A stretch of 64,000 nt of DNA from an uncultured Ignavibacteria bacterium. GTDB lineage: Bacteria; Zixibacteria; MSB-5A5; SM1-73. Both the position numbers and the translations under genes were made by a program. Shown here piece by piece: positions 2,892-56,668 of this stretch (positions within the stretch are counted from its first letter, which is position 1; each line of letters begins with the position of its first letter). The stretch lies in NCBI GenBank assembly GCA_964588305.1, contig CAZPOP010000017.1:230-64229 (forward strand). Reading direction: 5' to 3'. Below the pieces are notes generated by a model, which was given only the letters and a program-made list of their open reading frames with translations, made no database searches and had not been told where the DNA came from.

Positions 2892-3083
2892 CTGGAGTGT
2901 TCACCTTCCTTCGACCCTTCGACAAGCTCAGGGTGCTGAGCGAAGCCGAAGCACAAGCTCCCTTCGGGTCTGAGCCTCAAGGTCGAAGACAGGACGGTGA
3001 GCAAAGTCGAACCGTTAGGTGAACCTATAAGAGTTGATTGTTTTTCAAGAGGTTTTAGGTCAAGCTGAAGCTTGACACTCCAG
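2892..3083 (+). repeat. Structured palindromic repeat family, copy A (5' arm GGAGTGTTCACCTTC ... GGTGAACC ... 3' arm GGTCAAGCTGAAGCTTGACACTCCAG)
   Basis: Outer stem GGAGTGT/ACACTCC, inner perfect palindrome GTCAAGCT-GA-AGCTTGAC. The same arms recur at 13535, 21706 and 30119. Flanked by further IRs TCTCTGA/TCAGAGA at 2862..2886 and 3107..3122. Confidence 0.7.
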
Positions 3084-7135: not shown

Positions 7136-7141
7136 CAAGAG

Positions 7142-8107
7142 ATGAAAGTAAATAAATTCAGACGAGATGGAACAAAAACAAGTTCTTTTGGGACACCGGG
7201 GCGTGTCAATCATGATTCCTCGGAGTTTTACGACAGTAAAATGTATGCTGGTAAGCATCCTCCTGAAAGAGTTAAGTTTATTGAGAACCATATCCCGGCT
7301 AAGAATCTCGACAAAATCTATTGCAAATCAAGTGAAGTAATGGAGGACGTACCTGATCACAGTATCCACCTGATGGTTACTTCGCCACCATACAATGTCA
7401 AGAAGGAGTACGATAAAGACCTTTCCCTTGATGAATACAAAGCATTGCTAAAGAGGGTGTTCGCAGAGACTTACAAAAAGCTTGTAACAGGCGGAAGAGC
7501 TTGCGTTAATGTGGCTAATCTCGGCAGAAAGCCCTACATACCGCTTCATGGCTGCATCATTGAGATCATGCTTGAACTCGGCTATCTGATGCGCGGTGAA
7601 ATCATTTGGAACAAGGCATCAAGCGCTAGCCCTTCCACAGCATGGGGGAGCTGGCAGTCAGCCGCAAACCCTGTATTACGGGACATTCACGAATATATTC
7701 TGATTTTCTCAAAGGAATCATTTTCAAGAAAACGTAGCCACAAAAAAGATACCATTAGCAAAGAAGAATTCCTCGAGTGGACAAAAAGCGTTTGGACTTT
7801 CCCAGCGGTGTCAGCCCGCAGCGTCGGTCATCCTGCCCCTTTTCCAGAAGAATTGCCCCACCGTTTAATCCAGCTGTATACTTTCAAGCAAGATGTTGTC
7901 TTAGACCCGTTTTGCGGCAGTGGGACCGCTTGTGTTGCTGCACTGAAGGACGGGAGGCATTACATTGGATATGATATTGAGTCTGAGTATGTGAGATTAG
8001 CAACTCAAAGAATCGCGGCTTACTCAAGTCAGAAATCCTTATTTGAATACGAAAGACCTTCCCCAACTATGAATCCAAACGAAGAGCGGCCACAGCAAAG
8101 CATGTAG
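7142..8107 (+). CDS. Beta-class amino DNA methyltransferase (N4-cytosine or N6-adenine; SPPY motif IV precedes FxGxG motif I)
   Basis: Motif IV 'LMVTSPPYNV' lies upstream of motif I 'VLDPFCGSGTACVAA'. This order is typical of beta-class MTases such as M.PvuII and M.BamHI. Confidence 0.8.
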   Translation: MKVNKFRRDGTKTSSFGTPGRVNHDSSEFYDSKMYAGKHPPERVKFIENHIPAKNLDKIYCKSSEVMEDVPDHSIHLMVTSPPYNVKKEYDKDLSLDEYKALLKRVFAETYKKLVTGGRACVNVANLGRKPYIPLHGCIIEIMLELGYLMRGEIIWNKASSASPSTAWGSWQSAANPVLRDIHEYILIFSKESFSRKRSHKKDTISKEEFLEWTKSVWTFPAVSARSVGHPAPFPEELPHRLIQLYTFKQDVVLDPFCGSGTACVAALKDGRHYIGYDIESEYVRLATQRIAAYSSQKSLFEYERPSPTMNPNEERPQQSM

Positions 8108-8536: not shown

Positions 8537-8597
8537 TATTAGTTAATGCGTCAGGTCTGCTGCGCACCTGACCCTGTTAACTGGTTGAGTTTTATAG

Positions 8598-8623
8598 TTC
8601 AAGCATAGCGCAGCCTGCTTGAC
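8598..8623. terminator. Hairpin TTCAAGCAtagcgcagccTGCTTGAC (copy 1 of a 26-bp palindromic element), 3' of the small ORF at 8330..8536
   Basis: Near-identical reverse-complement copy at 36386..36411 between two convergent genes. No clean U-tract. Confidence 0.35.
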
Positions 8624-8766
8624 AAATCCTCTTATTTCCCACCTCCACGCTAGGAAAGCAAAATCACCCCAACTTTGATGGTGATGCCGATACCCCGCAC
8701 GTATATGAGAGACCAAATACGGGTTTTGTAGACAAATCCTCTATTCTGGCGGAAAGGATATTTCAT

Positions 8767-9621: not shown

Positions 9622-11184
9622 CTAACACGACGGCGGTGATCCTCCGATAAACAGGTAGTTGATAAGATGGACGGCGTCGGCAACGTCGACCACCTCGTCG
9701 CAGTTGGCATCAGCATTCTCCAAAGGATCGGGCGCAGAACCACCTATGAAAAGATAATTGATTAGCTGGATGATATCCGCTATGTCCACGGTCCCGTCCC
9801 CGTTGACATCCCCATGCGAAAATTGAGAATACTTTATGGTGGTATAGTCCAGGTTGTTGGGATAGGTGCTGCTTTGGAAACTTGAACCTGCCACATAAAC
9901 ATTGCCGGAAGCGTCCAAGGCTATAGCATAGGCGTAATCCTCGTAGTTTCCCTCTCCGTTGTATGTCCTTGCCCACATCTGGTTCCCCTCTGAATCATAG
10001 CTCACGGTGGCATAATCAGAAGGTGTTCCCGCAGTGCCGCTGAGGCCGGTGACGTAGACATTGCCAGAGCCGTCTACGGCCAGATCATAAGCCCAATCTA
10101 TACTACCTCCCGGTCCGTCAAATCGTCTTACCCAGGCAGTATCTCCGTTGGGATAATACTTTATCGTTGTATAGTCCTCGTAGGTCTCAGTACCCGCGTA
10201 AGCCTCGCCGGTGACATATACATTACCGGAATCATCCACGGCCAGGGCATATGCATAGTCCACGTCGTTAGCAGGTCCATCGTACCTTCTTACCCAGGCA
10301 GTGTCTCCGTTAGGATAGTATTTTATGGTGGCATAGTCTGGCTGTGCCCCAATGCCGTAGCTTTCTCCGGTTACGCATACGTTGCCCGAATTATCCACGG
10401 CTATGGCGACAGCAAGATCCCTGGAGTCATTCGGTCCATTATATCTTCGGGCCCACAACTCATTCCCCGATGCGTCGTACTTCAGCGTGGCATAGTCGCT
10501 GCCGGACTGATCGCTCCAGCTGTCTCCGGTCACATATACATTTCCGGACTCATCCACAGCTATGGCCTTGGCGCAATCGCCGTATTGGGTCCCCGGGCCG
10601 TCGTACTTTCTGACCCAGGCAGTGTCTCCCTCAGGATAGTACTTTATCGTGGTATAGTGGGCGTCGGCCTCTCCGGTAACATATACATTTCCGGAACCAT
10701 CCACGGCGATGTCCCAGGCGTGATCGCTACCGGTTTCTGCTCCATTGTATCTCCTCACCCAGGCGGTATCTCCGTTGGGATAATACTTTATGGTGGCATA
10801 GTCGTTGCCAGTCGCGATGCCACCGCTATATCCAGTTACATACACGTTGCCAGCATCGTCTACGGCGATAGCACGAATCCCGTCGTTGTCGCCTCCGGGC
10901 CCGTTGTACCTTCTCGCCCATGCGGTGTCTCCATTTGGATAATATTTCACGGTAGCGTAGTCGTCGCCTGTACCGCTGCCGTCACTCCTGCCGCCCACGT
11001 AGACATTGCCCGACGCGTCTACTGCTATGGCAAGAGCCTGATCATTGCCGGTTCCCTGGGCGTTGTAACCACTTACCCAGGCAGTCTCCACGAAAACACC
11101 AGCAGAAGAAGGCAAGGCCCACAAGACATAGTTTGACAGGCCGACCATACCCAGGAACAGAATCATTAGAACCTTCTTATGCAT
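9622..11184 (-). CDS. Secreted SBBP beta-propeller-repeat protein with C-terminal type-I dockerin
   Basis: About 10 tandem repeats of the 'YATIKYYPNGDTAWVRRYNGP...AIAVDxSGNVYVTG' unit (SBBP/PF06739-like). Signal peptide 'MHKKVLMILFLGMVGLSNYVLWALPSSAG' begins at the ATG at 11184, which is preceded by a GGAGGTG RBS. Dockerin repeats 'GDVNGDGTVDIADIIQLINYLF' and 'DANCDEVVDVADAVHLINYLF' at the C-terminus. Confidence 0.8.
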   Translation of the reverse strand: MHKKVLMILFLGMVGLSNYVLWALPSSAGVFVETAWVSGYNAQGTGNDQALAIAVDASGNVYVGGRSDGSGTGDDYATVKYYPNGDTAWARRYNGPGGDNDGIRAIAVDDAGNVYVTGYSGGIATGNDYATIKYYPNGDTAWVRRYNGAETGSDHAWDIAVDGSGNVYVTGEADAHYTTIKYYPEGDTAWVRKYDGPGTQYGDCAKAIAVDESGNVYVTGDSWSDQSGSDYATLKYDASGNELWARRYNGPNDSRDLAVAIAVDNSGNVCVTGESYGIGAQPDYATIKYYPNGDTAWVRRYDGPANDVDYAYALAVDDSGNVYVTGEAYAGTETYEDYTTIKYYPNGDTAWVRRFDGPGGSIDWAYDLAVDGSGNVYVTGLSGTAGTPSDYATVSYDSEGNQMWARTYNGEGNYEDYAYAIALDASGNVYVAGSSFQSSTYPNNLDYTTIKYSQFSHGDVNGDGTVDIADIIQLINYLFIGGSAPDPLENADANCDEVVDVADAVHLINYLFIGGSPPSC

Positions 11185-11583
11185 CCTGCACCTCCAATGA
11201 GAGCAAGTTAGAAGTGAAAAGCTTAAAGCTGATATTTTTCTCGAATGTAAGAAAAAAATAACACCCACATCCACAAAAGTCAACCAAAATCGTGCGAAAA
11301 GAGGAAAAGATTTGATGAGTATTCGGGCATCACTTGGGAGTGAGCAGTTGTAAGTGTCCAGTCGAATCTAACTGTAATCTCACCAGGTCGAGGGTCGCAG
11401 AGACCTACACTTGCCCAGGAGGGTAGGGTGAAAGGATCGCGCGCTTACTGTTATCGCAAACGAACTGAGGCAATCTCTTCATTCCCAATAGATTGCCTCG
11501 TCGCTTGCGCTTTTCGCAATCACGGAAGACATCATATGAATGAAGCGGTATTCTCCTCTTTTTTTGCGGGGAGTCTCAATGAC

Positions 11584-13482
11584 CTATTGCTTTGATTTTT
11601 CCACGAACCTGATAACTCCGTCGCAGATGGCCTGGGCACATTTTCTCTGGAATTTCTCGGTGCGGAGAAGTTGCTCTTGTTCGGGAATCATCATGAAGGC
11701 GCACTCAACCAATACCGCTAAGAGCTGGCTGGGTCGGGTCAAGACCAGGTTTCCATAATAGACTCCGTAATCTGGCAGCTGCAGTTTCCTCAGCAACTCT
11801 CTCTGAATCTCTTTGGCCAGGGCCAGGGATTGAGGGTGGTAATAATATGTGCTGGTTCCGTTATTGTAAAAAGGATTTATCCCATCGGGAAGGGCATTGT
11901 TATGGACGCTGATCAGGATGTCGCAGCCTTCTTCGATGGCAATTTTGGGGCGATCGTAAAGAGCCAAGCTGTCCATCCAGCTGCGCGTCATGATGACTTC
12001 TGCGCCATTCTTCTCCAGGATACTCTTCAGCTCTTTGGCTATCTCCAAATTGACAACCTTTTCCTCCAGGCCGGTAGGCCCAACAGCACCAGGATCAGGA
12101 CAATGCCCTGGATCCACGGCGATTTTCAGACCTTCAAGTTTTTTCTTCAGCCTGGGCTGATCCTTTATCTCCAGTATCAAGGCGCTCCCCTCATAGAAAA
12201 CATCATACCCCCAGTGTTGTTCCAAGTTCAGATAGACCTTGAGCTGGTACACCTCATCCTTAGGCTGAGCCCACTGTATCTCTTTGATCACCTGGTCTGC
12301 AAGATCGTACCTAATCCAATCCGTGTTGGAGGTAACTCCATAAATGGTCAAGAACAAGGCGGGCGGCTTTGTTTTCTGCTCAACTCTGAAAGGCAGTTTT
12401 TCCTGGAGGAAAATCCGGAGCTGTGTTTTTCTGTCTTCTGTTTGTGTTCGCATGGAAGTCAGAAAACTTTTGGGAATGGATGTGCCCAAAGGCAGATATT
12501 TTATGCTATCTTCGCGAACCCATGCATTCTCTCCTTCAGCCAACTTCAACCGCACCCACTCCCCGATCCTTCCGGTTGCAACCGCTCTTATGCCGGGCGG
12601 TTGGTACAAGAGAAGATAGCCTAGTTTGGGACCGGATCGGGCAATGAGGGAGGAACCTGTAAACTCCACTATTTGTGGAGTCTGATCTTGTCTTATGGTG
12701 ATTCTGCTTTGAGACGTATCGGTGATGACGTTCGTGCTGTCGTCATTCTTCCTGGACAATTGGAATACAATTCTGACACTATCGATTTGGTCTGTATTTT
12801 TTATGATATAAGAACCGGTGTACACTCCTTTGAGGAAAAGCTTTTCCGGCACCAGGCCCTTTCCAAATACCTCTTTTCCCCAGTAGGGCTGTCTTTTGGG
12901 AGGTGCTTCGGTCATGGGAATATCCGAAATCAAACCCTCTATGGAAAAAGAAGCCTGGCAGTCAGGAGTCCCTCTGAATTTTATCTCCAATACGTCACCT
13001 GCGGTTAAGATCATGTCTTTGTTGGGAGATACGCTTCCCTTGACGATACAGAAACTGTCTTCGGGCACGGAGAGAATGGGCTCAGGCACTTTCACTTTCA
13101 GTCGTTTAGTGGAGATGCCTGCCTTATTCGAAGCGATCAATTCAAAAACGAAGTTCCTCCCGCCTTCGGCGGGACTTTCAGCGGGCTCGAGTGGGAGGAA
13201 GGCTAAGAAAGCCCCGTTCGGATGGACTTTCACCTTGAATCCGTTTATTCTCAATTCCGATTCGGGAGCCACGGACCCAAAAATGAAGGTAGAATCGGAG
13301 ACGCCAATTCTGGCGCCCTCTTTGGGATAGATTACCGATATTTCGGGGAGCGAATCCTCTTCGGTGGCAGCGTCAATTCTTGTGTCTTCGCCCGACACAA
13401 GCGATAGAAAAACAATTATGGGAATAAAAAAAACAAAAGCTAGCTTTTTGCTAATCATCTTTTTCCTCTTGGTAGCCTGCAT
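11584..13482 (-). CDS. N-acetylmuramoyl-L-alanine amidase (Amidase_3 family) with long N-terminal extension
   Basis: C-terminal domain 'KIAVDPGHCPDPGAVGPTGLEEKVVNLEIAKEL...ILISVHNNA' matches the Amidase_3 (AmiC-like) zinc-ligand pattern. N-terminal signal/TM segment 'MISKKLAFVFFIPIIVFLSLVSG'. Confidence 0.8.
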   Translation of the reverse strand: MQATKRKKMISKKLAFVFFIPIIVFLSLVSGEDTRIDAATEEDSLPEISVIYPKEGARIGVSDSTFIFGSVAPESELRINGFKVKVHPNGAFLAFLPLEPAESPAEGGRNFVFELIASNKAGISTKRLKVKVPEPILSVPEDSFCIVKGSVSPNKDMILTAGDVLEIKFRGTPDCQASFSIEGLISDIPMTEAPPKRQPYWGKEVFGKGLVPEKLFLKGVYTGSYIIKNTDQIDSVRIVFQLSRKNDDSTNVITDTSQSRITIRQDQTPQIVEFTGSSLIARSGPKLGYLLLYQPPGIRAVATGRIGEWVRLKLAEGENAWVREDSIKYLPLGTSIPKSFLTSMRTQTEDRKTQLRIFLQEKLPFRVEQKTKPPALFLTIYGVTSNTDWIRYDLADQVIKEIQWAQPKDEVYQLKVYLNLEQHWGYDVFYEGSALILEIKDQPRLKKKLEGLKIAVDPGHCPDPGAVGPTGLEEKVVNLEIAKELKSILEKNGAEVIMTRSWMDSLALYDRPKIAIEEGCDILISVHNNALPDGINPFYNNGTSTYYYHPQSLALAKEIQRELLRKLQLPDYGVYYGNLVLTRPSQLLAVLVECAFMMIPEQEQLLRTEKFQRKCAQAICDGVIRFVEKSKQ

Positions 13483-13534
13483 GAAGTATGCTACGTGAGA
13501 TCTCCGAAAAAGTCAGATCAGGATGAGAGAATTT

Positions 13535-13617
13535 GGAGTGTCAAGCTTCAGCTTGACCTTGAAATCCTCAAGAAGCTTGGAACTCCTGTTTGGTTCACCT
13601 GAAGGTGAACACTCCAG
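13535..13617 (-). repeat. Structured palindromic repeat family, copy B (reverse orientation), in the 139-bp gap between epimerase and amidase genes
   Basis: Reverse complement reads CTGGAGTGTTCACCTTCAGGTGAACC...GGTCAAGCTGAAGCTTGACACTCC. Confidence 0.7.
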
Positions 13618-13621
13618 TCTA

Positions 13622-20476: not shown

Positions 20477-21658
20477 TCACCACACCAAGTGTCTCAGCAA
20501 GAACAAAAGCCTGGGGCTTGATCTCAGGATGGTCTTGACCACAGGAATTGGGTCTATGCTGGTGACCGTCTTCCCGTCAAAGCATCCTTTCAGGAACGAA
20601 ACGGCCGCATCGAAATCCTCGTCGGTCATTCTTAAAAATATGGCCCGACAGTAGGAATAAAACCGCAATAAGCTCCCCTTGGACCGCATAAGTTCATCAT
20701 AATACTTCTTAAGAAACGAAACGGATAGATTCCCATCTTTGACATACTGGCTCACCACCGATCCGGCGATCTTTCCGGAGAGCAAAGCATTGGAGATTCC
20801 GGCCCCGGAAAGCGAATCGACCACTCTTCCTGCATCCCCAACCAGAAGGAGGTTCTCCTTAACTAAATTTCTGCTTCGATCAAAACTGGGAACTGCCCCC
20901 ATCATGGATTCCAGTATTTCGAAATCAGAGAATCTTTTCGCCACAAAGTCATCCAGCAGGTCTTTGGCCTTTTTGTTGGCAGGATCAGGCGTCACTGCCA
21001 ACCCGACATTGGCAAGATTCTCTCCTTTGGGAAAAACCCAGGCATATCCACCCGGGGCCACGGAGCATCCCAAATAAAACTCCACGCAGTCTGGTTCTAT
21101 ATCCACCTCTCCTAAGAGATATTGGGCACATGATTCTATCTGGTTCAATCTTAAAGAGGAATCCATCCCCGCCCACCCGGCTACGCACGACTCCACGCCG
21201 TCTGCTCCGATTATCACCTTGGCCTGGTATTCTTTTTCTCCTCCATCCTCCAGGACTCTAACTCCACACAGCTTTCCTTTTGTGTTTTTCATAAGCCCAA
21301 TGGCCTGGACGTTCGTTTTCAGACAGGCCCCGGCAGAAGCGGCTTTTTCGGCTAATCTCCGGTCAAAGAGTCTTCTGTTCAAAACTAAGCCGACGTCGGG
21401 ATGGTGAACCTTCATTCTGATCCCCTTTGGGCTGACCAGGAGCATATTTTGACTATAGGTGCTGACCCATTCCGGATCGAGCGGAACAAAATCGGTTAGC
21501 CCGGAGAGGCTTATGGCCTCGGCACATGACAGGGGAGATCCGATCTGCGAATGCTTCTCCAGAATCAAAACGGCGACCCCATTTTCAGCCAGAACCTTGC
21601 CGGCCATTGACCCGGCGGGGCCAGCTCCTACCACAATGCAATCGAATTCGTCGCTCAT
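20477..21658 (-). CDS. Geranylgeranyl reductase family FAD-dependent oxidoreductase
   Basis: FAD-binding 'FDCIVVGAGPAGSMAG', 'GADGVES', 'LVGDAGRVVDSLSGAGI'. Start set to the ATG at 21658, which is preceded by GGAGG. Confidence 0.8.
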   Translation of the reverse strand: MSDEFDCIVVGAGPAGSMAGKVLAENGVAVLILEKHSQIGSPLSCAEAISLSGLTDFVPLDPEWVSTYSQNMLLVSPKGIRMKVHHPDVGLVLNRRLFDRRLAEKAASAGACLKTNVQAIGLMKNTKGKLCGVRVLEDGGEKEYQAKVIIGADGVESCVAGWAGMDSSLRLNQIESCAQYLLGEVDIEPDCVEFYLGCSVAPGGYAWVFPKGENLANVGLAVTPDPANKKAKDLLDDFVAKRFSDFEILESMMGAVPSFDRSRNLVKENLLLVGDAGRVVDSLSGAGISNALLSGKIAGSVVSQYVKDGNLSVSFLKKYYDELMRSKGSLLRFYSYCRAIFLRMTDEDFDAAVSFLKGCFDGKTVTSIDPIPVVKTILRSSPRLLFLLRHLVW

Positions 21659-21705
21659 CTCTGATTTAGAAAGACCTCCGAAAAACCATCCCAAGAAGGC
21701 GGATT

Positions 21706-21788
21706 GGAGTGTTTACCTTTAAGACAACCCTGCATAAGCTTTTTGTCTTTCGAGGGCTTAAAGGTCAAGCTGAAGCTTGACACTCCAG
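21706..21788 (+). repeat. Structured palindromic repeat family, copy C, between ferredoxin and geranylgeranyl reductase genes
   Basis: GGAGTGTTTACCTTTAAG...CTTAAAGGTCAAGCTGAAGCTTGACACTCCAG, with compensatory inner stem ACCTTTAAG/CTTAAAGGT. Confidence 0.7.
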
Positions 21789-21815
21789 CAAAATCCTCGT
21801 CCGAAAGGCCATCTC

Positions 21816-22022
21816 CTACCTGCTCTTCCCGAGGGTTATCTCCTCGGGAGTGTCGGTCATTCTCAGCGCTCCTACCGGACAGAAAACTACGCAGTTTTGG
21901 CAAAGTGTGCACAAGTCCGGTTTGATTAAGAGTCCTGAGACAAAAAGCTCCAAAGCTTGATGCGAACAGACCGCCACGCAGCCCCCGCATTGTCCGCACA
22001 GTTTTGGCTCTACTTCCAGCAT
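21816..22022 (-). CDS. 2[4Fe-4S] ferredoxin
   Basis: Two CxxCxxCxxxC(P/S) motifs: 'CGQCGGCVAVCS' and 'CTLCQNCVVFCP'. Confidence 0.8.
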   Translation of the reverse strand: MLEVEPKLCGQCGGCVAVCSHQALELFVSGLLIKPDLCTLCQNCVVFCPVGALRMTDTPEEITLGKSR

Positions 22023-22243
22023 GTTGAGCGTCTTGACGCGAAACAGGTCTCGCTACTTCGGAACTTGGCCTTTTCTATCCATAAAAAATGCTGGGGTAAT
22101 TTAACCCCAGCATTAACGAATATCAAGATGTTTTTTGTGTTAGACTCTATGATGGGGCAGGGATCTGACCCCTGCCCCAACTTATCTGCTAATCCTTGTC
22201 AAATCAACTCCACGGATCCTTCTGATCCGCTCAGTCCGTTGAT

Positions 22244-24058
22244 CTACTTCAACAGGACCATTCGTTTGGTCTGGGTAACCTCGCCCGCACTCAACTGACA
22301 GAAGTAAATGCCGCTGGCCAAGTCTCTACCCTTTTGATCCTTTCCATCCCAATTCAAGGTCTTGGTTCCTGCTTCCTGGCGGCCGTCGACCAATGTTCTC
22401 ATCTTCTGGCCCAGTATGTTGTAGATGGTCAAAGTCACCCGGCAAGGCTTGAGGAGATTATATTTGATGAGGGTCTGGTTGTTAAACGGATTGGGATAGC
22501 TCTGGTAAAGCTCGAAATCCTTTGGAGTTATGGCACTCCCTTGGTCCTCCTCTTCGACCGCAGTAGACTTGGGGCAGATCATGACCGCATATTCCACTTC
22601 GGTGGCATAGAAGATCACGTCGTCTTTGGGTGCCGGTTTGGTGACGGCTATGAATTTCTCCGGAACGTTTAGGCCAGAGTATTTACGGACGCCGTAGGGG
22701 TAATTAATCTCCCAGAAAGGATTGCCCTGGCTGGGTGGGTCAGGGGTCAGGTTGCTTTGGTACATGTCGTGCGAGACGTTGGATGGATCGTTGTGCAGAG
22801 TGGCGTCATATTCCCCGGAAGGTGGATGTAGTGGCGGCCTGATCCTGCCTGGGGCACCGTGTACGGCTCCGTCCCAGTCCGGATCGCTGATGGCGATCTT
22901 CAAGGAGTCGGAACACACTCCGGCCATGGTGACAAAATGCCCGCCCTCTCTATGCCACTCCAATCCGTCGGCCGACCACCAGAAGCCCAGAAGCAGGATG
23001 ATATCCTGGGACCTTTTCAGCGAGTCCTCCATTTCGTGGAAGTTGGGCATCTCGAAGGTGGATTCCTTAAGGGCGAATTCAAAGTCCTGGAAGTATTGGT
23101 CCAGTGCCATCTCCATGGTGTCGACGTAGGTTCCCTGCCCTGGATTGCAGTGCATGCGCGCTGCCAGGCTATCTATCAGCTGAGGGGGAGTCCATCCCTG
23201 GGGTACGGCATCATACCACCACAGGCAGTTGGCCACGGCGGTGGGGCCGCAATAAGCCACCCACTGATCCTGATTCTGGTCAAAATCGGGCATGCCGCTG
23301 GGAGAATTCCCCGTGTCGTCTTTCCAATACCAACAGCTCTCCGGATCACACTGCTGGGTATAGCCGGTTATCCGCATGATCGGGTATCCGGGGACTGGAG
23401 GCGACCAGAAGTCTGACCACTCGAAATACCAGTACTGCTCCTCCCAGAAGTACCAAGCCCAGGCATCACAGGTGTCCGCCGGGTTTGTGCTCTCGTTGGT
23501 CATGGTTAGACTGGGATATGGCGGATTTGATTCGCCGGTGTATAGAATCTCCAGAAAGAACGGGTCACGTACACAACAAAGCGAGTCCAGGTCCAGATGA
23601 ATCGTGTCTGGATAAGCGGAATCGCTGTGAATGGTGTACACCTGAGAACACAAGATATCTCCGGGACCATTGCACTTGTCTCCCTCATACAAGTCCCGTA
23701 TATTGACTTCAATCTCCACCGGCCAAGTATAGTCCTCGGGGTCGTAGAGATAAAAATGTACATCCGTTATCTTGAAGGGATAAGGATCCGGCAGCCCGCA
23801 CTGTGCCGGGTCCAGATATAACGCAAATCCGTCACCCCCTTGAAAATCGCCGAAGTAAGAGGCTACCGCGTCATTATCGCTTTGAATCAGGCAGAAACCC
23901 TTGCCACCACCTGGGGGGGCAGGTGAGGATGGAATAATCTGATCCGCGGGGACCTTTTGGGGAGTTAGTTTGTCAAAACCTTCCGCAGCCGCATTTGAAG
24001 TGAAAATGCCAAAAACGAACACGCCCGCCAAGATCAGCATCGTTAGTTTTCTTATCAT
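22244..24058 (-). CDS. T9SS-sorted secreted protein with papain-fold Cys/His domain (paralog 1)
   Basis: Signal peptide. Conserved 'YCGPTAVANCLWWYDAVPQG' (candidate Cys) and 'REGGHFVTMAGV...ISDPD' (candidate His/Asp). C-terminal T9SS CTD 'YQSYPNPFN...GIYFCQLSAGEVTQTKRMVLLK'. Confidence 0.65.
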   Translation of the reverse strand: MIRKLTMLILAGVFVFGIFTSNAAAEGFDKLTPQKVPADQIIPSSPAPPGGGKGFCLIQSDNDAVASYFGDFQGGDGFALYLDPAQCGLPDPYPFKITDVHFYLYDPEDYTWPVEIEVNIRDLYEGDKCNGPGDILCSQVYTIHSDSAYPDTIHLDLDSLCCVRDPFFLEILYTGESNPPYPSLTMTNESTNPADTCDAWAWYFWEEQYWYFEWSDFWSPPVPGYPIMRITGYTQQCDPESCWYWKDDTGNSPSGMPDFDQNQDQWVAYCGPTAVANCLWWYDAVPQGWTPPQLIDSLAARMHCNPGQGTYVDTMEMALDQYFQDFEFALKESTFEMPNFHEMEDSLKRSQDIILLLGFWWSADGLEWHREGGHFVTMAGVCSDSLKIAISDPDWDGAVHGAPGRIRPPLHPPSGEYDATLHNDPSNVSHDMYQSNLTPDPPSQGNPFWEINYPYGVRKYSGLNVPEKFIAVTKPAPKDDVIFYATEVEYAVMICPKSTAVEEEDQGSAITPKDFELYQSYPNPFNNQTLIKYNLLKPCRVTLTIYNILGQKMRTLVDGRQEAGTKTLNWDGKDQKGRDLASGIYFCQLSAGEVTQTKRMVLLK

Positions 24059-24457
24059 TTGTTTCCTCCCTTTGGTTTAGAGATTTATAAAATCAGCAAA
24101 CTTTCATCAATTAGTCCTTTGTCCCACCTCCTTTTTTGTTTTTAGAGTTTCGCCAAAAGTCACCTATAAAAAGTTTTCCATGAAGTATATGGTTGAGGAT
24201 TTCAAAAAGCAAGAGATTTATCGGCGCAAACTGAAAATAACAATTTCGCGTTTTCTTCAAGACAGGTTCCTGCCCAGCTATCCTCTCCAGCCAGATGGTT
24301 AAGCGTCTGCCCAGGCGCGGAGAGAGACCTGACCACGAGATTTGGCCAAGCCTTATTTGTGTTACATCTTTCTACATGGTATCTTTTGATCCTCTTGTTG
24401 GTATGTTCAAGATCAAATCAAATCCGCTGCATCCGTCCGGGCGTTTGACTCGTTGAC

Positions 24458-27400
24458 CTACTTTAGAAGCACCAGACGTTTTGTCTCTTTGACCTCACCG
24501 ACCTTCAACTGGTAGAAGTAGATGCCAGTGGATAGGTCATTGCCTTTTTCGTCCGTTCCGTCCCATCTGATGCTCTGGAGACCTGCCTGGCTGCGTCCCT
24601 TCACGAAGGTTTTCACCTTCTGCCCCAGAACGTTGTAAATCGCCAAGCTGACCTCAGCCGGCCTTCGCAGATCGAACTTGATCAGGGTCTCGGCGTTGAA
24701 TGGATTGGGGAAGTTTTGATAAAGCTCAAAGTCCTTTGGAGTCAGAGCCGCTTCCTCCTCTCCCTCCACTGCGGTGGGCTTGGGACAGATCATTACCGCA
24801 TACTCCACCTCGGTGACAAAGACGTCCATCGCGTCTTTGGGCGCCGCTTTGGTCGCAGCCCTGAATTTGTCCGGAACGTTCATGCCGGAGAATCCACCTC
24901 GGGCCCAGATATAGTCGATTTCCCAGAAAGGATTGCCCGGGCTGGGGAACGGGTTGTCAAGCAGGCTTTGGTACATGTCGTGGGAGACGTAAGTTGAATC
25001 GTTATGCAGTTCAGGCGGATAGAGTCCGGCTCCCGGATGCCACGGAGGTCTGACTCTGCCAGGTCCACCTTCCACTGCCGCATCCCGGTCCGGGTCGCTT
25101 AGGGCAATCTTCAGAGACTCGGAGCATACACCGGCCATGGTGACAAAATGTCCGCGCTCCCTGTGCCACGTTCCCCCGCCCGGACAAGCGGGAAAGCCGG
25201 CGCAGCCAAGAGCATCCGACGTTGGATCCACGCCGCAATCCGGAAATGGGGGAGGCAAGTCGGGACCAGCCATGTAGATATAGTCATAGAGAGCTATGCT
25301 GTCGCCGGAATCCAATACCCCGTCATCGTTAGCATCGGCAGCATCATCGCACGGAAAAGGTGGTCCGGTCAGCCAATAAGTTAAGTCGGCCGTGTCAGTG
25401 ACTCCGTCCTGGTTTAAATCTCCCCGGATGAACTGCTGCGGTTCTCCCTCATACCACCAGAAACCCAAGAGCAGGATGATGTCCTGACACTTCTTGAGCG
25501 AATCCTCCATTTCGAGGAAGTCGGGCATCTCGAAAGTGGATTCCTGGAGGGCAAATGCATAATCCAGGAAATACTGCTCCAGTCCCGCCTGCATGCTGTC
25601 GACGTGCGTTCCCGAGTCGGGGTCGGTTTGAAAGTATCTGGCCAGCGTATCGATCAACTGAGGCGGAGTCCAACCGGGCGGAACTGCATCATACCACCAC
25701 AGGCAGTTGGCTACTGCCGCGGGCCCGCAGTAGGCTATCCATTCGTCCTGATCCTGATCAAAATCGGGCATGCCGCTGGGGGCGTGGGCGGTATCTGGTT
25801 TCCAGTACCAGAGCGAATCGGGCTTCACCAAATGCACCCAGGTGGTGCAATAGTCAGCGGCACCATCCTCGTCGGTCAACCCGTGGATGACCATGTGGGT
25901 ATCGCAAGGGGTGCAGCCGTCAGTGTACCAGGTGATCTCCCAGGTGCCGGATGAAGTTCCCTGTCCTGAGATTCTGGTTATGAAATAGTCGCTGCCGCAG
26001 CCGGGCTGAATGTCAATGGAGGCTTCGTTTTGAATAGAATCCCCGTCCGGATCCGTGCCGGTGATGGTATACTCCACCGCATCGTCCACATTGCCCTCAA
26101 GGAAATCGGGCTGTTCGATCTGGGGCGGGTAATTCGCGTCCGGGTTGGGGCAGATCATGACGGCTGCTTCCACTTCTGTACGCCAATACTCCAAATGCTC
26201 GGGCGCTGCCCTGGTGACGGGCCGGAACCTCTCCGGAACGTTTTTGTTAAAGTATATCAGTGGCTCGTAGCAGTAATCTGCCAGTTCCCATAAGTCGCTG
26301 GCCGGGCTGGGAAATTCCGGGTTAAGCAAGCAGATATAGGCGTCATGGGAGACGTATTGGGTGTCGTTGTGATAGGTGGGGTCGTAACCTCCCCAGGGAA
26401 GGTGCTCTTCCGTTCTGACTCTGCCCGGCCACCAGGAGTACAGTAAACATTGATCCCGATCCGGATCGGATATGGCTACCTCCTTTTTCTCGGAGTTGAC
26501 CCCGGCCATGGTTACAAAATGCCCGCCTTCACGGTACCACTTCGCAGAGTCGTCATCCCACCACCAGAAACCCAGAAGGAGGATGACATCCTGGCAGACC
26601 TTGAGCGAGTCTTCCATCTCGTAAAAGTCCGGCGCCCAATAGGTGGTCTCCTTTAGGGGGAGCAGGTAGTCCTCGAAGTAACTGTCCAGGCCCGCTTGAA
26701 TGGAATCCACGTCGGTGCCAGCAGGGCCGGTGCCGAAGTACCCTGCCAGCAGCTCGATGAACTGGGGAGGCTGCGTTCCTTGCGGGACGGCATCGAACCA
26801 CCAGAGGCAATTTGCCACTGCTGTGGGTCCGCAAAAGGCTGTCCACTCTTCCTGGTTCTGGTCGAAATCGGGCATGCCGCTGGGGGCAGTGGCGGTGTCC
26901 GGCTTCCAATACCATTCTCCGCACTCGGTCTGTTCCTCGCCGCAATATCCACTTATGCCCAGCACGACCCATCCCGGAACGGAAGGTGTCCAAGCCTCAT
27001 ACCACTCCGACCAGGCTGGCTGACCAGACCAGAGCCATTGATAGCAGGTATCGACGGTGACCGTGTCAAAAAACACGCTGGGAATTGAGCCACTCACTCC
27101 GCTCATATACTCCAGATTGAAGAAAAATGGCTTGTCGAGACAGACGGTGTCCGGGAACGAAATTTCTACAGAATCAGGATAGAACGTGGTGATATGGTAA
27201 AGCTGTGATCTCCATATCTCGGTCCCTGGTCCATCGCAAATGTCAGGGCAGACTATCTCCGCACTGAAGCGTACATCCACCTGCCCGCTTCCCGAATAAT
27301 CGTTAAGGTACAACGACACACCAGTCAACTGGAAAGGGTAGTTAGAGGGATTCCCGCAGTCTTCCGGGTCGAAGTATATGGCTACCTTGTCGCCGGATTT

Positions 27401-27622
27401 AAAACCACCCCAGAAATAAACAGGTGTCCAGTTGGTGTGCGACAGCACACAATAGTTTTCCTCGCCGGTTAGGGCCGGAGGTTTGAGAGGGATTATCTTG
27501 TCAGGGGGAATCGGAATCACCTTCCTGGTGGGCATCACCGCGGGCTGTTGAACTGTGGCTGAAGAAAAGGTGATCAGACTTAAGGCCAGGATGCCCAAAA
27601 AACATATTGATCTTTTGTTCAT
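24458..27622 (-). CDS. T9SS-sorted secreted protein with duplicated papain-fold Cys/His domain and internal dockerin insertion (paralog 2)
   Basis: The 'FCGPTAVANCLWW...GGHFVTMAGV' module occurs twice. Between the 'GFWW' and 'GHFVTMAGV' segments of the second copy lies a dockerin-like pair of Ca-binding loops ('GDLNQDGVTDTADLTYWL' and 'DANDDGVLDSGDSIALYDYIYMAG'). T9SS CTD 'YQNFPNPFN...GIYFYQLKVGEVKETKRLVLLK'. Confidence 0.65.
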   Translation of the reverse strand: MNKRSICFLGILALSLITFSSATVQQPAVMPTRKVIPIPPDKIIPLKPPALTGEENYCVLSHTNWTPVYFWGGFKSGDKVAIYFDPEDCGNPSNYPFQLTGVSLYLNDYSGSGQVDVRFSAEIVCPDICDGPGTEIWRSQLYHITTFYPDSVEISFPDTVCLDKPFFFNLEYMSGVSGSIPSVFFDTVTVDTCYQWLWSGQPAWSEWYEAWTPSVPGWVVLGISGYCGEEQTECGEWYWKPDTATAPSGMPDFDQNQEEWTAFCGPTAVANCLWWFDAVPQGTQPPQFIELLAGYFGTGPAGTDVDSIQAGLDSYFEDYLLPLKETTYWAPDFYEMEDSLKVCQDVILLLGFWWWDDDSAKWYREGGHFVTMAGVNSEKKEVAISDPDRDQCLLYSWWPGRVRTEEHLPWGGYDPTYHNDTQYVSHDAYICLLNPEFPSPASDLWELADYCYEPLIYFNKNVPERFRPVTRAAPEHLEYWRTEVEAAVMICPNPDANYPPQIEQPDFLEGNVDDAVEYTITGTDPDGDSIQNEASIDIQPGCGSDYFITRISGQGTSSGTWEITWYTDGCTPCDTHMVIHGLTDEDGAADYCTTWVHLVKPDSLWYWKPDTAHAPSGMPDFDQDQDEWIAYCGPAAVANCLWWYDAVPPGWTPPQLIDTLARYFQTDPDSGTHVDSMQAGLEQYFLDYAFALQESTFEMPDFLEMEDSLKKCQDIILLLGFWWYEGEPQQFIRGDLNQDGVTDTADLTYWLTGPPFPCDDAADANDDGVLDSGDSIALYDYIYMAGPDLPPPFPDCGVDPTSDALGCAGFPACPGGGTWHRERGHFVTMAGVCSESLKIALSDPDRDAAVEGGPGRVRPPWHPGAGLYPPELHNDSTYVSHDMYQSLLDNPFPSPGNPFWEIDYIWARGGFSGMNVPDKFRAATKAAPKDAMDVFVTEVEYAVMICPKPTAVEGEEEAALTPKDFELYQNFPNPFNAETLIKFDLRRPAEVSLAIYNVLGQKVKTFVKGRSQAGLQSIRWDGTDEKGNDLSTGIYFYQLKVGEVKETKRLVLLK

Positions 27623-27945
27623 GTTTTTGACTCCCTAAGTTCAAAATTCGAGGTAAGACTGGTCCTCAGCAATGAGTTTAAGCTGTCATTCATCACCGGA
27701 GATCAACCCAAGTACGAAAGCATAGCTTAAGGCCCTGCTTCCTTTTTTGCTTGAAGTCCTGCCAAAAGTTGCCCAAGAATATCTTCATTTTACGTTTTCA
27801 TTATAATATATCAACGGGAAACTCGGAAGGCAAGGAATTTGTGGGTACAAGAGTTGAAAATCACGCATCTTTGCACTGGCCGACGAATTCATCACTAAGG
27901 TATGGGTGGAAGAAATCCTATCCGCACAGGGTCAATACCGCTTTT

Positions 27946-29850
27946 CTACTTCAACAAGACCATTCGTTTGGTCTGGGTGATCTGGCCAGCCATCAGTTGG
28001 TAGAAATAGATGCCTGAAGGTAAATCCTTGCCCTTTTCATTCTTTCCGTCCCAGCTTACAGTTTTGGCACCTGGCCGCTGGTACTCGTCGACCAACGTTC
28101 TGACCTTCTGCCCCAGAATGTTATACATTACCAGCGATACCGGGCAGGACTTGAATAAGGTATATTTGATCGTCGTTTCGCTGTTGAAAGGATTGGGATG
28201 GTTCTGGAATAGCTGGAAATCTTTGGGAGAGAAAACCTCCTCTTCTTCGTCCACGGCAGTGGACTTAGGACAGATCATGACGGCATATTCCACGACCGCA
28301 TGTACGGGTTCGGAAGGTTCATAGGAGTGAAAATACTCTGTTTGACCGGGCTGGAAGTTCTCTCCTTCGAACCGGCTGAACAGAGAGGTAGTATCATCGG
28401 CATAGAAGTCCTTTATCCTCCAGAGGGTATCCAGGCTATCGCCATAATCGATAACAAACAAAGTGTCTGAGACATAGATATCGTGAGACACATAGAGAGA
28501 ATTGTTGTGAAGCGTATGATCGTCGGGATGAGAGGGGTGTCCCAGAGGGAAGAACCTTCCTTGCCAGGCAAGCTCCGCTCCATCCACCGCAGGATCGCTG
28601 AGTGCAACCCAGGATGACTCCGGGCAAGCACCTGCCAGGGTAACAGCATGGCCCCCGAAACGGTGCCAGGAATCTTCGTAAAATTGCCAAAATCCCAAAA
28701 TGAGAATGATGTTGTGATTCTTTTCCAATGAGTCAGCCGTCTCGCGAAAACTGGGTCGATGGCGGGTGTCCTGGCATAGAGAGAGTCCATATTCGCTGAA
28801 GCAACTGTCTAAGCCGCTCTGAATTGAATCCACTGAAGTTCCACTGTCCGGATCGGTGCCGAAGTAGGTGGACAAAAGTCGGATGAGATCAGGAGGGTCC
28901 GTATCTTGGGGAACTTCATAGAACCACCATAAACAGTTTGCCACAGCAGTGGAAACGTCCAGAGCCGATGAATCGCCGAACTGATACTGGTCAAAATCCG
29001 GCATCCCACTGGGAGCTTTGGAGGCGGTGGGTTTCCAATCCCAACAAGGGTTACAGTCAATAGAATTGGTGTAACCGATTGTTCGCATTATGGGACATCC
29101 TGGAATTGAAGCTCCGGGAGAAGATGGGCCCCAGAACTGGGACCATTCACAGTAGTTCCCATCATAAAGAAACCAGGCCTCGCAGGTATTTGGAAAGTCG
29201 AGGACACTGTCGCTCATGACCAGGCTGGGAAATGGGGGATTGGTTTCACCGGTAAAGATGATCTCTAAAAAAAAGGAATCGGTCAGGCAGCAGGTCGAGC
29301 TTGGATTGGTGAGGGAATCTAAGTCCAAATTAATCGGCCTTCCCAGACTATCGTAACTGGAGTCAATGGGTATGGTGAAGGTCTGGTGATACAAGAGAGT
29401 GCCGGGTTTTCCAAGATCAGGACAGAGGGTATCCAGAGTATCTACTTTCACCTGCCTAATGTTCACCCGAATCTCGACCGGCCAGACGGCGGTAAGCCCA
29501 CCTGCATAATCGTAAAGGTAAAGCCGCACGCCCGTTAGTTTGAAAGGATAGGGATTTGCTCCGGCGCACTTTTCCGGATTCATATATAAGGCGTAACCGT
29601 TGCCCGGAATTGTGTCAGGATAATACCAAGCCAGCGAGTCCTCATCATATTTAATCACACAAAAGCGTTCCCCGCTCACGCCAAAAGTACGGAGAGATTG
29701 CGGTACCCTTTCACCAGCAATCGGAATTGCTTTTATCTTTTGGGCATCAGAATCAGCGGAAGTATGATCTATCCCGAAAGAAAGGAGAAATGCCAAAAGC
29801 GAAAAGAGAAATACTAGTTTTTTGCTCATTTCTTTTTGTGAGATCATCAA
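27946..29850 (-). CDS. T9SS-sorted secreted protein with papain-fold Cys/His domain (divergent paralog 3)
   Basis: 'STAVANCLWWFYEVPQDTDPPDLI', 'GGHAVTLAGACPESSWVALSDPAVDG'. T9SS CTD 'FQNHPNPFN...GIYFYQLMAGQITQTKRMVLLK'. Confidence 0.6.
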   Translation of the reverse strand: MMISQKEMSKKLVFLFSLLAFLLSFGIDHTSADSDAQKIKAIPIAGERVPQSLRTFGVSGERFCVIKYDEDSLAWYYPDTIPGNGYALYMNPEKCAGANPYPFKLTGVRLYLYDYAGGLTAVWPVEIRVNIRQVKVDTLDTLCPDLGKPGTLLYHQTFTIPIDSSYDSLGRPINLDLDSLTNPSSTCCLTDSFFLEIIFTGETNPPFPSLVMSDSVLDFPNTCEAWFLYDGNYCEWSQFWGPSSPGASIPGCPIMRTIGYTNSIDCNPCWDWKPTASKAPSGMPDFDQYQFGDSSALDVSTAVANCLWWFYEVPQDTDPPDLIRLLSTYFGTDPDSGTSVDSIQSGLDSCFSEYGLSLCQDTRHRPSFRETADSLEKNHNIILILGFWQFYEDSWHRFGGHAVTLAGACPESSWVALSDPAVDGAELAWQGRFFPLGHPSHPDDHTLHNNSLYVSHDIYVSDTLFVIDYGDSLDTLWRIKDFYADDTTSLFSRFEGENFQPGQTEYFHSYEPSEPVHAVVEYAVMICPKSTAVDEEEEVFSPKDFQLFQNHPNPFNSETTIKYTLFKSCPVSLVMYNILGQKVRTLVDEYQRPGAKTVSWDGKNEKGKDLPSGIYFYQLMAGQITQTKRMVLLK

Positions 29851-30118
29851 TTATCAAAATCTATTTTCACTCTCTTCTTTGCGTTCGGAGGCGAATCACG
29901 GAGCTTGCCTAATGATTATACAATCGTCCTCTTACAAAAACAAGGGATTTTCTGCGGTCGGTAAAAACAAAAATGAGATGGATCGTGACGAATAGTGCTG
30001 GTCGACAGGTTTTTCGGGTGGGGTAGTTCCTTCCGACGATAAGCCGATCTGCAAAAGGAAGCGGCTCAGGTTCCGGACAATGTAAAGTCAGAGAGAATCA
30101 CTCAACACCTGTCTCTCA

Positions 30119-30144
30119 GGTCAAGCTGAAGCTTGACACTCCAG
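30119..30144 (+). repeat. Structured palindromic repeat family, copy D (3' arm only; partial)
   Basis: Exact GGTCAAGCTGAAGCTTGACACTCCAG, preceded by a TCAGAGAGA...TCTCTCAGG IR. No GGAGTGT 5' arm. Confidence 0.55.
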
Positions 30145-36219: not shown

Positions 36220-36385
36220 ACACGATTGCAGGATTCTGGGACAATACCACTTTCATCAGAAGGAACAAATCATATAGTCTTATCGATTCGCCGCATCTGT
36301 CTTAGAAACATTTAAGTCTGTAGGTGAACCATCCCGCAGGGCTTGTCGTGAAGCCTTGCGCTGAAGGGTGGTTGACATTTATTTT

Positions 36386-36411
36386 GTCAAGCAGGCTGTG
36401 CCATGCTTGAC
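36386..36411. terminator. Hairpin GTCAAGCAggctgtgccaTGCTTGAC (copy 2), between convergent permease-M1 and MATE genes
   Basis: Reverse complement differs from the 8598 copy at 2 or 3 positions. Confidence 0.35.
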
Positions 36412-36443
36412 CTACTCTACTTAGAGGAATAGGGAAACTCCAC

Positions 36444-46490: not shown

Positions 46491-46604
46491 GAATGTGACG
46501 GTGGACAGCTCAAATAAGAGCATCAGAACCCCAGCGTAGGCTGGCAAACTGAACCCGTCCAAAATGGACAATTACGTCATCCATTATCCAAGCGGGGGTG
46601 TATT

Positions 46605-48731: not shown

Positions 48732-48782
48732 GTTGGTGCGAACAGGTAGCATTCACGCGGGAAAGATTGCCCAAAAATCCAA

Positions 48783-51779: not shown

Positions 51780-51783
51780 TGGT

Positions 51784-56298
<4,515 letters not shown>

Positions 56299-56636: not shown

Positions 56637-56668
56637 CTAAAGCACCAGAGTTTAGAGCCGATTTAGGT
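56637..56668 (+). promoter_or_regulatory. Conserved 32-bp motif CTAAAGCACCAGAGTTTAGAGCCGATTTAGGT (copy 2), about 170 bp upstream of the frameshifted hybrid kinase
   Basis: See copy 1. Confidence 0.4.

Follow-up and report, generated by a model that had tools for sequence, protein, structure and literature searches.

A 64,000-nucleotide (nt) stretch of DNA from an uncultured Ignavibacteria bacterium (GTDB lineage Bacteria; Zixibacteria; MSB-5A5; SM1-73; GenBank assembly GCA_964588305.1, contig CAZPOP010000017.1, positions 230 to 64,229 of the forward strand), hereafter the window, carries a gene for a flavoenzyme of the geranylgeranyl reductase (GGR) family and, directly upstream of it, a gene for a small ferredoxin. 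By analogy with Methanosarcina MA1484/MA1485, we consider it on balance probable that this gene pair constitutes a bicistronic system of that kind, a ferredoxin-dependent prenyl (geranylgeranyl) reductase acting most likely on ether-lipid-type chains. As a preliminary description of this DNA had proposed, both genes lie on one strand, the minus strand, and the 157-nt gap between them holds a copy of a palindromic repeat:

20477..21658, minus strand: GGR-family flavoenzyme, 393 amino acids (aa) from an ATG at 21658, supported by Pfam, NCBIfam, a PDB match and an AlphaFold2 (AF2) model.
21659..21815, minus strand: ferredoxin-GGR spacer, 157 nt, made or enlarged by repeat insertion.
21816..22022, minus strand: small 2x[4Fe-4S] ferredoxin, proposed electron donor of the GGR, 68 aa, supported by Fer4 families and conservation of its cysteines.

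The 393-aa GGR begins MSDEFDCIVVGAGPAGS..., and its length and start match those of nearly all close homologues, which supports the start at 21658 given in the preliminary description. The list of open reading frames (ORFs) had the gene as 20477..21694 (minus strand), with 405 aa from a TTG, and the same 405-aa start appears in one JGI record; the TTG at 21694 is probably a miscall that extends into the spacer. Public GGR starts miscalled into the repeat or spacer include those of the window protein itself (P0001, 405 aa) and of P0022 (410 aa), and the JGI label "digeranylgeranylglycerophospholipid reductase" on GGR homologues is an automatic name.

The protein matched the Pfam families GGR_cat (PF22578, 91.6 bits, cut-off 27) and FAD_binding_3, and its 217.6 bits on the NCBIfam geranylgeranyl reductase family model TIGR02032 (cut-off 158.8) place it in that family. 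In a PDB sequence search the best match, over the full length, was Thermoplasma acidophilum Ta0516 (3oz2, E 6e-55, 190 bits), followed at about 60-65 bits by FixC (7koe_C, second, E 4.8e-17) and then by the Sulfolobus GGR. The AF2 model, built with 54 homologues as input (pLDDT 88.7, pTM 0.89), gave Foldseek TM-scores of 0.89 to 3oz2, 0.84 to the Sulfolobus GGR (3atq) and 0.77 to FixC (7koe). The FAD motif GxGxxG is present (G11-A-G13-P-A-G16), and R95, F98, G274 and D275 of the flavin-contact motifs RxxFD and LxGD are invariant in the 54 homologues, D99 nearly so. C45 aligns with the cysteine of the Ta0516 segment GSPVRCGEG and is the counterpart of the catalytic Cys47 of the Sulfolobus enzyme, and in the substrate-cavity motif P202-G-G-Y205-A-W207-V-F209-P210 the P, G204, Y, W, F and P are invariant across the same 54 sequences; C45 and the glycines of GxGxxG are likewise invariant or nearly so. 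Ta0516 and the window GGR, about 30-32% identical, thus have in common the FAD fold, the catalytic Cys, YxWxFP and LxGD, and the hallmarks seen here (GxGxxG, catalytic Cys, RxxFD, PxxYxWxFP, LxGD) are those listed for archaeal GGRs (PMC10821996).

Within the superfamily, the window protein stood apart from MenJ and ChlP/BchP. MenJ (Rv0561c-type) and ChlP/BchP belong to the same GGR superfamily (TIGR02032), and on their models the window GGR scored far below the cut-offs, with 126.8 bits on TIGR02023 (BchP-ChlP, cut-off 343.3), 83.6 on TIGR02028 (ChlP, 505.3) and 60.6 on the MenJ model NF045655 (700), on which a MenJ-like Streptomyces protein, 28.6% identical to the window GGR, scored 214.7; the FixC model NF007542 gave 57.2 bits (cut-off 610). 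A search of 1.84 billion cluster representatives returned 563 at E<1e-30, the nearest from Zixibacteria (48% identity) and TA06 (44%). In a rough neighbour-joining (NJ) tree, the window GGR fell in a Zixibacteria clade, inside a radiation with Methanocellales, Methanobacterium, Thermoplasmata and Ta0516, and well apart from MenJ-like actinobacterial, cyanobacterial, haloarchaeal and Marine Group II (MGII) sequences. Clustering with ChlP/BchP or another defined bacterial clade, a possibility raised in the preliminary description, was not observed for ChlP/BchP or MenJ, judging from the low model scores, the best match to archaeal lipid GGRs and the rough tree. By sequence, the window protein is a GGR-family member of the archaeal-type branch, outside ChlP/BchP, MenJ, FixC and the curated digeranylgeranylglycerophospholipid (DGGGPL) reductase equivalogs.

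FixC, too, is a flavoprotein of this superfamily, and its gene is accompanied by one for FixX, a small ferredoxin-like protein. A FixC/FixX-like pair, of the electron-transferring flavoprotein (ETF)-quinone oxidoreductase type, was therefore weighed as a candidate in place of a prenyl reductase, given the second rank of 7koe_C among the sequence matches (E 4.8e-17) and its TM-score of 0.77. The FixC model score is 57 bits against 610, 3oz2 fits far better than 7koe (190 vs 65 bits; TM 0.89 vs 0.77), the protein has the GGR-specific catalytic domain PF22578 as well as the YxWxFP and Cys motifs, and the ferredoxin is of the full 2x[4Fe-4S] clostridial type, which together make such a pair extremely improbable; it was rejected on the low FixC score, the better 3oz2 fit and the lack of etfAB/fixAB genes in the window and related loci.

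The proposed donor carries two CxxCxxCxxxC motifs and matches Fer4 families, and all eight cysteines are invariant across 15 GGR-linked ferredoxins. It is 43% identical to its Methanosarcinaceae counterpart (locus L025) and 45% to that of Methanocellales (L031), with equal cluster spacing and 8/8 Cys aligned, while the window GGR is 44% identical to the Methanosarcinaceae protein over the available 182 residues and 38-39% to those of Methanocellales. The M. acetivorans pair, GGR MA1484 and ferredoxin MA1485 (Isobe et al. 2014, J Bacteriol 196:417, via PMC4244643 and PMC10821996), is arranged as in the window, with the gene of a small di-cluster ferredoxin immediately preceding, on one strand, that of an archaeal-type GGR. 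Expressed in E. coli, the M. acetivorans GGR saturated digeranylgeranylglyceryl phosphate (DGGGP) only if the ferredoxin gene upstream of it was expressed as well (PMC4244643, PMC10821996). Unlike M. acetivorans, the window host is a sediment-type bacterium of the Fibrobacteres-Chlorobi-Bacteroidetes (FCB) group, and a repeat like a repetitive extragenic palindrome (REP) is inserted between the two genes.

We explored whether the ferredoxin is kept beside the GGR in relatives. The close homologues of the GGR (56-89% identity) are metagenomic, several of them labelled Candidatus Zixiibacteriota by NCBI. By tblastn, a ferredoxin lay directly upstream of the GGR in all seven testable Zixibacteria-like loci (L001, L003/L004, L005-L007, L008, L210, L211 and L212); L002 and L009, which end at the GGR start, were left out of this count. 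These upstream ferredoxins are 56-74% identical and keep all eight Cys. L210, with a GGR 80% identical, has the stop codon of the ferredoxin overlapping the start codon of the GGR (ATGA); the two genes are 13 nt apart in L003, and in L005 and L008 the ferredoxin reading frame continues into the GGR start. The small gene itself (57-75 aa) is uncalled in most of the public annotations (L001, L003-L006, L210 and L212) and called in L211 and L207-L209.

Beyond Zixibacteria, GTDB species genomes were scanned with the GGR alignment, which gave 80 loci. A same-strand di-cluster ferredoxin ORF was found upstream of the GGR both in bacteria (Ignavibacteriaceae L012, Aggregatilineales L014 and the "Cytophagia" metagenome-assembled genome (MAG) L018) and in archaea (Methanobacterium L015, Micrarchaeota L024, Methanosarcinaceae L025 and Methanocellales L031), and the linkage was present in 8 of the 22 archaeal-type loci outside Zixibacteria. 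An adjacent ferredoxin was seen in none of 55 distant GGR-family loci (L032-L086, mostly actinobacterial MenJ-like, cyanobacterial included). All five loci of the L018-type clade (L018 and L206-L209, with KSB1/Calditrichaeota-labelled proteins or near relatives) showed the linkage; in one of them, a 2.6-Mb KSB1 contig, the upstream ferredoxin is frameshifted (L206, 4820-5004), by sequencing error or as a pseudogene. Moreover, the two proteins are found fused: in an Anaerolineae MAG (L019, 5806-7089) the ferredoxin is joined to the GGR N-terminus, and the same domain layout occurs in 12 of the 150 best cluster representatives (P0133, P0142, P0157, P0164, P0177, P0181, P0186, P0197, P0203, P0243, P0244 and P0245). 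Eight of these 12 fusions group beside the Zixibacteria clade in the rough NJ tree.

The preliminary description had asked whether relatives keep the ferredoxin beside unrelated genes; none did, and it stood upstream of the GGR in every testable Zixibacteria-like locus and also in other phyla. On these comparisons the ferredoxin-GGR pairing is non-accidental, and the conserved adjacency, the stop/start overlaps, the fusions and the homology to an experimentally required ferredoxin together make a dedicated electron-donor role the best supported one. That the ferredoxin is required for GGR activity in this organism we infer from the Methanosarcina analogy.

The same observations bear on a rival account, in which the adjacency is incidental, the ferredoxin is a general carrier and the GGR uses NAD(P)H. 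This is how Ta0516, the closest solved relative, is reported to work, with no dedicated ferredoxin (PMC10821996); Ta0516 and the Sulfolobus GGR are active without a specific ferredoxin (PMC10821996, PMC4244643), many archaeal-type GGR loci have no ferredoxin nearby, and in the window 157 nt and a strong hairpin separate the genes. We nevertheless regard incidental adjacency as improbable, since the linkage is held across Zixibacterial GGRs of 56-80% identity, with overlapping stop and start codons, and is found again in several phyla of bacteria and in four or more lineages of archaea, with fusion in 12/150 representatives, and since the ferredoxin is homologous to the Methanosarcinaceae GGR-linked type that is needed in M. 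acetivorans (PMC4244643).

Two sets of loci bear on which isoprenoid the proposed ferredoxin-dependent reductase would saturate. In the first, a UbiA-family prenyltransferase gene precedes the ferredoxin and the GGR, as in the following clusters:

L018 4791-7773, L207 2058-4993, L209 3832-6778 and L208 3877-6173: UbiA-ferredoxin-GGR cluster, from KSB1, Calditrichota and a "Cytophagia" MAG.

In L018, L207 and L209 the genes follow one another as purF, UbiA-family prenyltransferase, ferredoxin, GGR, pgsA-like CDP-alcohol phosphatidyltransferase and ftsY; L208 has UbiA, ferredoxin and GGR without the CDP-alcohol transferase, and L206 lacks UbiA. By its gene content, this KSB1-type cluster ties the pair to a step of prenyl transfer, though not to DGGGP in particular.

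The second set is Zixibacterial. A contig with the same repeat unit as the window (L127), clearly bacterial by its ruvABC, ispD, ispF, Omp85 and outer-membrane beta-barrel genes, encodes at 10846-11706 (minus strand) a 286-aa UbiA with 241.9 bits on PRK12884 (cut-off 269) and 228.9 on PRK12882 (cut-off 296), the model for DGGGP synthase (DGGGPS). The best 120 homologues of this protein are 56-100% identical, some are labelled Zixibacteria, and one is named geranylgeranylglycerol-phosphate geranylgeranyltransferase by NCBI. The Omp85-UbiA synteny recurs in a named Zixibacteriota MAG, and the DGGGPS-like UbiA (also at L213, 10001-10840) is conserved across Zixibacteria, always downstream of an Omp85-family gene and with no adjacent gene for geranylgeranylglyceryl phosphate synthase (GGGPS). 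Coleman et al. (2019) reported GGGPS and DGGGPS orthologues in 12 of 12 surveyed FCB phyla, Zixibacteria included (PMC6431249). The DGGGPS-like gene in Zixibacteria thus favours an ether-lipid product, short of proof; together with the KSB1/Calditrichota UbiA-ferredoxin-GGR-pgsA operon, it makes ether-lipid-type chains our leading guess, and on these gene contents we rank saturation of DGGGP-type ether lipids first, ahead of quinone or polyprenol saturation.

Several points weigh against this ranking and against the ferredoxin-dependent ether-lipid system as a whole. The window GGR reached none of the DGGGPL reductase equivalogs, with 201.6 bits against 780 for NF041160, 125.4 against 580 for NF041080 and 83 against 700 for NF041385 (the 201.6 bits being its score on the Thermoplasmatales equivalog model); as it lies below every curated equivalog cut-off, its substrate specificity is unreadable from sequence. 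GGRs are also promiscuous (PMC10821996). The NJ tree is star-like, carries no support values and gives a rough placement. In the KSB1-type operon, all NCBIfam matches of the UbiA are below 55 bits and the CDP-alcohol transferase resembles ordinary bacterial pgsA; the UbiA had no relative in the PDB by sequence and, lacking that and an NCBIfam subfamily, is not called DGGGPS. Among FCB phyla, glycerol-1-phosphate dehydrogenase is reported for Fibrobacteres and Cloacimonetes only (PMC6431249), and no GGGPS match was found in about 2 Mb of fetched loci using an unverified Archaeoglobus sequence as probe, so that the presence of GGGPS is taken from the literature. The Zixibacterial ferredoxin-GGR pair does not adjoin a lipid or isoprenoid gene, its neighbours being rpsT, murJ and rarA. 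Finally, an adjacent ferredoxin is missing from 14 of the 22 non-Zixibacterial loci of archaeal type, including those of WOR-3, Stahlbacteria, Bathyarchaeia, Altiarchaeota and Thermoplasmata, so that the linkage is frequent, not universal.

The neighbourhood of the pair has a further possible meaning. MurJ is the lipid II flippase, and its substrate is polyprenyl-linked. The ferredoxin-GGR system could be real and act on the side chain of a respiratory quinone, with a function like that of MenJ or of archaeal menaquinone prenyl reductases, on a dolichol-like polyprenyl-phosphate carrier, or on free geranylgeranyl diphosphate destined for another product, a reading to which the conserved neighbourhood with murJ, alr, an amidase and an MR_MLE epimerase lends support, as does the KSB1-type UbiA, which scores similarly on homogentisate phytyltransferase, chlorophyll synthase and DGGGPS models. 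GGRs are promiscuous, and archaeal paralogues have been proposed to act on quinones and polyprenols (PMC10821996). On the other side, the GGR is far from MenJ (60.6 bits vs 700) and much nearer to archaeal lipid GGRs, the murJ link crosses the convergent rpsT and may be plain synteny, and the DGGGPS-like gene in Zixibacteria is as widely conserved as the GGR. We hold quinone or polyprenol saturation to be rather unlikely, and still a serious rival because GGRs are promiscuous and the equivalog thresholds were not reached.

A different, ferredoxin-free GGR subgroup from Saprospiraceae and Marine Group II archaea (L022 4530-7703, L023 6001-10111 and L026/L027 near 7100-7860), set aside in the present comparison, adjoins one or two class I S-adenosylmethionine (SAM) methyltransferases, with a UbiA prenyltransferase next in L023; this methyltransferase-linked cluster could be of a prenylquinone or tocopherol-like kind.

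The spacer of the window pair holds one of several repeat copies and hairpins:

3057..3082, minus strand: repeat copy A, core, with a decayed 3' unit.
13534..13619, plus strand: repeat copy B, the most complete doublet of the window, antisense to its flanking genes (-35.4 kcal/mol, z -2.85).
about 21705..21787, minus strand: repeat copy C, 83 nt, REP/REPIN-like, in the ferredoxin-GGR spacer.
30118..30143, minus strand: repeat copy D, core, the 26-nt unit alone conserved.
22037..22056, minus strand: a further REP-like hairpin, GTAGCGAGACCTGTTTCGCG, headed by GTAG, which occurs once in the window and precedes the ferredoxin start by 14 nt.
22087..22114, minus strand: intrinsic-terminator-like hairpin and T run, with an 11-bp stem, 6 G-C pairs and a TTTTAT tail, ending the upstream secreted-protein gene.

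Copy C was secondarily inserted, since repeat-free relatives have a 13-nt gap or overlapping genes; the insertion between ferredoxin and GGR suggested by the preliminary description is thus borne out by the overlap in L210, the 13-nt gap in L003 and the run-in frame in L005 and L008. In L001, L211 and L212 a repeat unit begins directly after ferredoxin codon 57, giving the stop codon in L001, and L211 has an additional nested insertion at the junction. The window copy lies about 60 nt downstream of the insertion point in these three loci, and the closest relative, L210, has no insertion. Both ORFs are intact in every repeat-carrying ferredoxin-GGR locus, and the junction looks like a recurrent landing site for repeats.

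Such an insertion might have broken the operon by polarity or termination, leaving the GGR poorly expressed or decaying. An 83-nt element with a predicted structure of -33 kcal/mol does lie between the cistrons, and the C-terminal tail of the window ferredoxin is unlike that of the closest repeat-free relative L210. A broken operon is nonetheless very improbable in our view: neither ORF is shortened and every catalytic and cluster residue is kept, both ORFs also persist in L001, L211 and L212 despite related insertions at this junction, and the repeat hairpin in the spacer is not followed by a T-run terminator. The terminator-like hairpin at 22087..22114, whose equivalent is present in L210, L211 and L212, closes the upstream gene, so that the ferredoxin-GGR pair would be a separate transcription unit. 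A sigma-70 promoter scan was at or below background, with one match, and as this overlaps the upstream terminator no promoter is claimed.

The repeat was recognized from an 18-nt palindrome, GTCAAGCTTCAGCTTGAC, found four times in the window (3059, 13540, 21764 and 30120) against 0.08 expected from shuffles, within a 26-nt block identical across all four copies. Copy C consists of a TGGAGT head, a hairpin GTCAAGC-TTCA-GCTTGAC, a variable interior, a degenerate inverted second unit and the closing ACACTCCA; it folds into a closed multi-branch structure with a terminal stem TGGAGTGT/ACACTCCA (-33.3 kcal/mol, z -3.3), and copy B folds likewise. Copies A and D retain the 5' unit only. At least 119 metagenome stretches (loci L087-L205) contain the exact 24-mer TGGAGTGTCAAGCTTCAGCTTGAC, and 47 of 115 distinct instances have the inverted second unit (GTTCACC-TAAA-GGTGAAC-ACTCCA and variants), with a modal total of 83 nt. 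Scanning all fetched loci for TGGAGT and a perfect 7-bp hairpin gave 30 different stems, nearly all with a TTYA loop; 30 paired stems behind the same head mean that head and loop are conserved and the stems are changed by compensatory substitutions. In L139 (10735-11103, minus strand), four tandem 115-nt mosaic units join the TGGAGT hairpin unit to a second hairpin, GGTCGAGGGTACCCTTACCCTCGACC, in the manner of bacterial interspersed mosaic elements (BIMEs).

RAYT transposases mobilise REP/REPIN elements, and enterobacteria are known to carry BIME mosaics. The family resembles these in its 24-nt unit, which combines a constant head with a hairpin of 7 bp, in its many intergenic copies, scattered in both orientations, and in its frequent inverted doublets (modal 83 nt), compensatory stems and tandem mosaics; unlike REP/REPIN, whose classical head is GTAG/GTGG, its head is TGGAGT, and a second family nearby has GTAG. 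By its anatomy, read from the sequence, the family is REP/REPIN-like, and it is apparently new to description in these uncultured bacteria. Rfam returned nothing meaningful for the whole window at the gathering threshold or for the spacer at E<=1, with no match to the repeat, and no RAYT (Y1 transposase) was found among the annotated ORFs of the 64-kb window. A promoter or operator role of the repeat was rejected in view of copy B lying antisense to its neighbours, the hairpin covariation and the inverted doublets.

In several relatives the GTAG-head hairpin (GGAGTAGCGAGAC-TT-GTCTCGCG) precedes the ferredoxin start by 14-25 nt. L001 has a stem variant, AAGCAAGAC/GTCTTGCG, upstream of the ferredoxin (near 7625) and a canonical copy upstream of the GGR (7921); further copies lie in L211 (about 2013-2053) and L212 (2130 and 2238), that of L210 is degenerate, and the hairpin is dispersed elsewhere with compensatory stem variants. 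It could represent a separate repeat family, or else serve the ferredoxin-GGR unit as a conserved leader or operator. The window also contains a short inverted pair of TTGTCAAGCAGGCTGTGCCATGCTTGAC-like sequences (8595-8626 and 36383-36414), 27.8 kb apart and with arms 91% complementary; a similar sequence follows the TGGAGT unit in L119, and the pair may be one more member of the repeat superfamily.

Pfam searches of about 40 window ORFs revealed no other isoprenoid or lipid gene, and no tRNAs were found in the window. The conserved Zixibacterial order is secreted proteins, ferredoxin-GGR, rpsT (convergent), murJ and, in most loci, rarA, with a competence-family gene in the rarA position in L005/L006; alr comes next in the window and in L001. 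Genes neighbouring the GGR carry sorting domains of the type IX secretion system (T9SS), which are typical of the FCB group. In the window (22244-29850, minus strand), three paralogous secreted proteins have a C-terminal T9SS sorting domain and shared internal repeat modules (direct repeat families D6, D8, D10 and D14-D17), and relatives have DUF7451 and faint peptidase C39-like matches at this position. Farther off (43383-59762, plus strand) lies a group of genes for response regulators and large hybrid histidine kinases, whose many PAS domains are joined by a recurring ITERKRAEE-type linker (direct repeats D9 and D13); TonB-dependent receptors adjoin it.

In the mechanism that we propose, low-potential metabolism of the cell would reduce the 68-aa di-cluster ferredoxin, which would hand electrons singly to the FAD in the reductase. 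Once reduced, this flavin would act together with Cys45 and the YxWxFP pocket to hydrogenate C=C bonds in geranylgeranyl-type chains. The substrate that we infer is probably an ether lipid of the (di)geranylgeranylglyceryl-phosphate type, which the Zixibacterial DGGGPS-like prenyltransferase would supply. Ferredoxin and GGR would ancestrally have been translationally coupled; the 83-nt REP/REPIN-like element would later have entered the junction, displacing the ferredoxin C-terminal tail and leaving both ORFs intact, and, more speculatively, the stable repeat hairpin may modulate the relative expression of the two cistrons.

Systems of this kind are already known from Methanosarcina, and archaeal-type GGRs of FCB bacteria have already been published: GGGPS/DGGGPS homologues and GGRs "closely related to Euryarchaeota" were described from Cloacimonetes and others (Villanueva et al. 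2021, PMC7852524; Coleman et al. 2019, PMC6431249). These two studies leave a ferredoxin partner of the bacterial GGRs undiscussed, mentioning ferredoxin only through the citation of Isobe et al. (PMC7852524, PMC6431249), and Zixibacteria are unnamed in the main text of Villanueva et al. (PMC7852524). In the literature searched we found no report of a bacterial ferredoxin-GGR partnership, of the fusions or of the UbiA-ferredoxin-GGR cluster.

The "lipid divide" debate on archaeal-like membranes in bacteria rests mostly on GGGPS/DGGGPS genes, and the saturation step and its reductant have been little studied. The present loci show that the archaeal-type GGR in several FCB and other bacterial lineages brings its own ferredoxin, sometimes fused to it, which would explain why a GGR expressed alone might seem inactive, and they flag a small gene that annotation pipelines often miss. 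They also define a two-gene cassette for co-expression in existing E. coli archaeal-lipid strains, in which the saturation step is directly testable. More tentatively, it is possible that Zixibacteria, and broadly FCB lineages (KSB1/Calditrichota), make saturated archaeal-type ether lipids through an ancient, horizontally shared ferredoxin-GGR module; if so, the ferredoxin would be the missing electron donor for full saturation, and UbiA-ferredoxin-GGR-pgsA would be a dedicated bacterial lipid operon.

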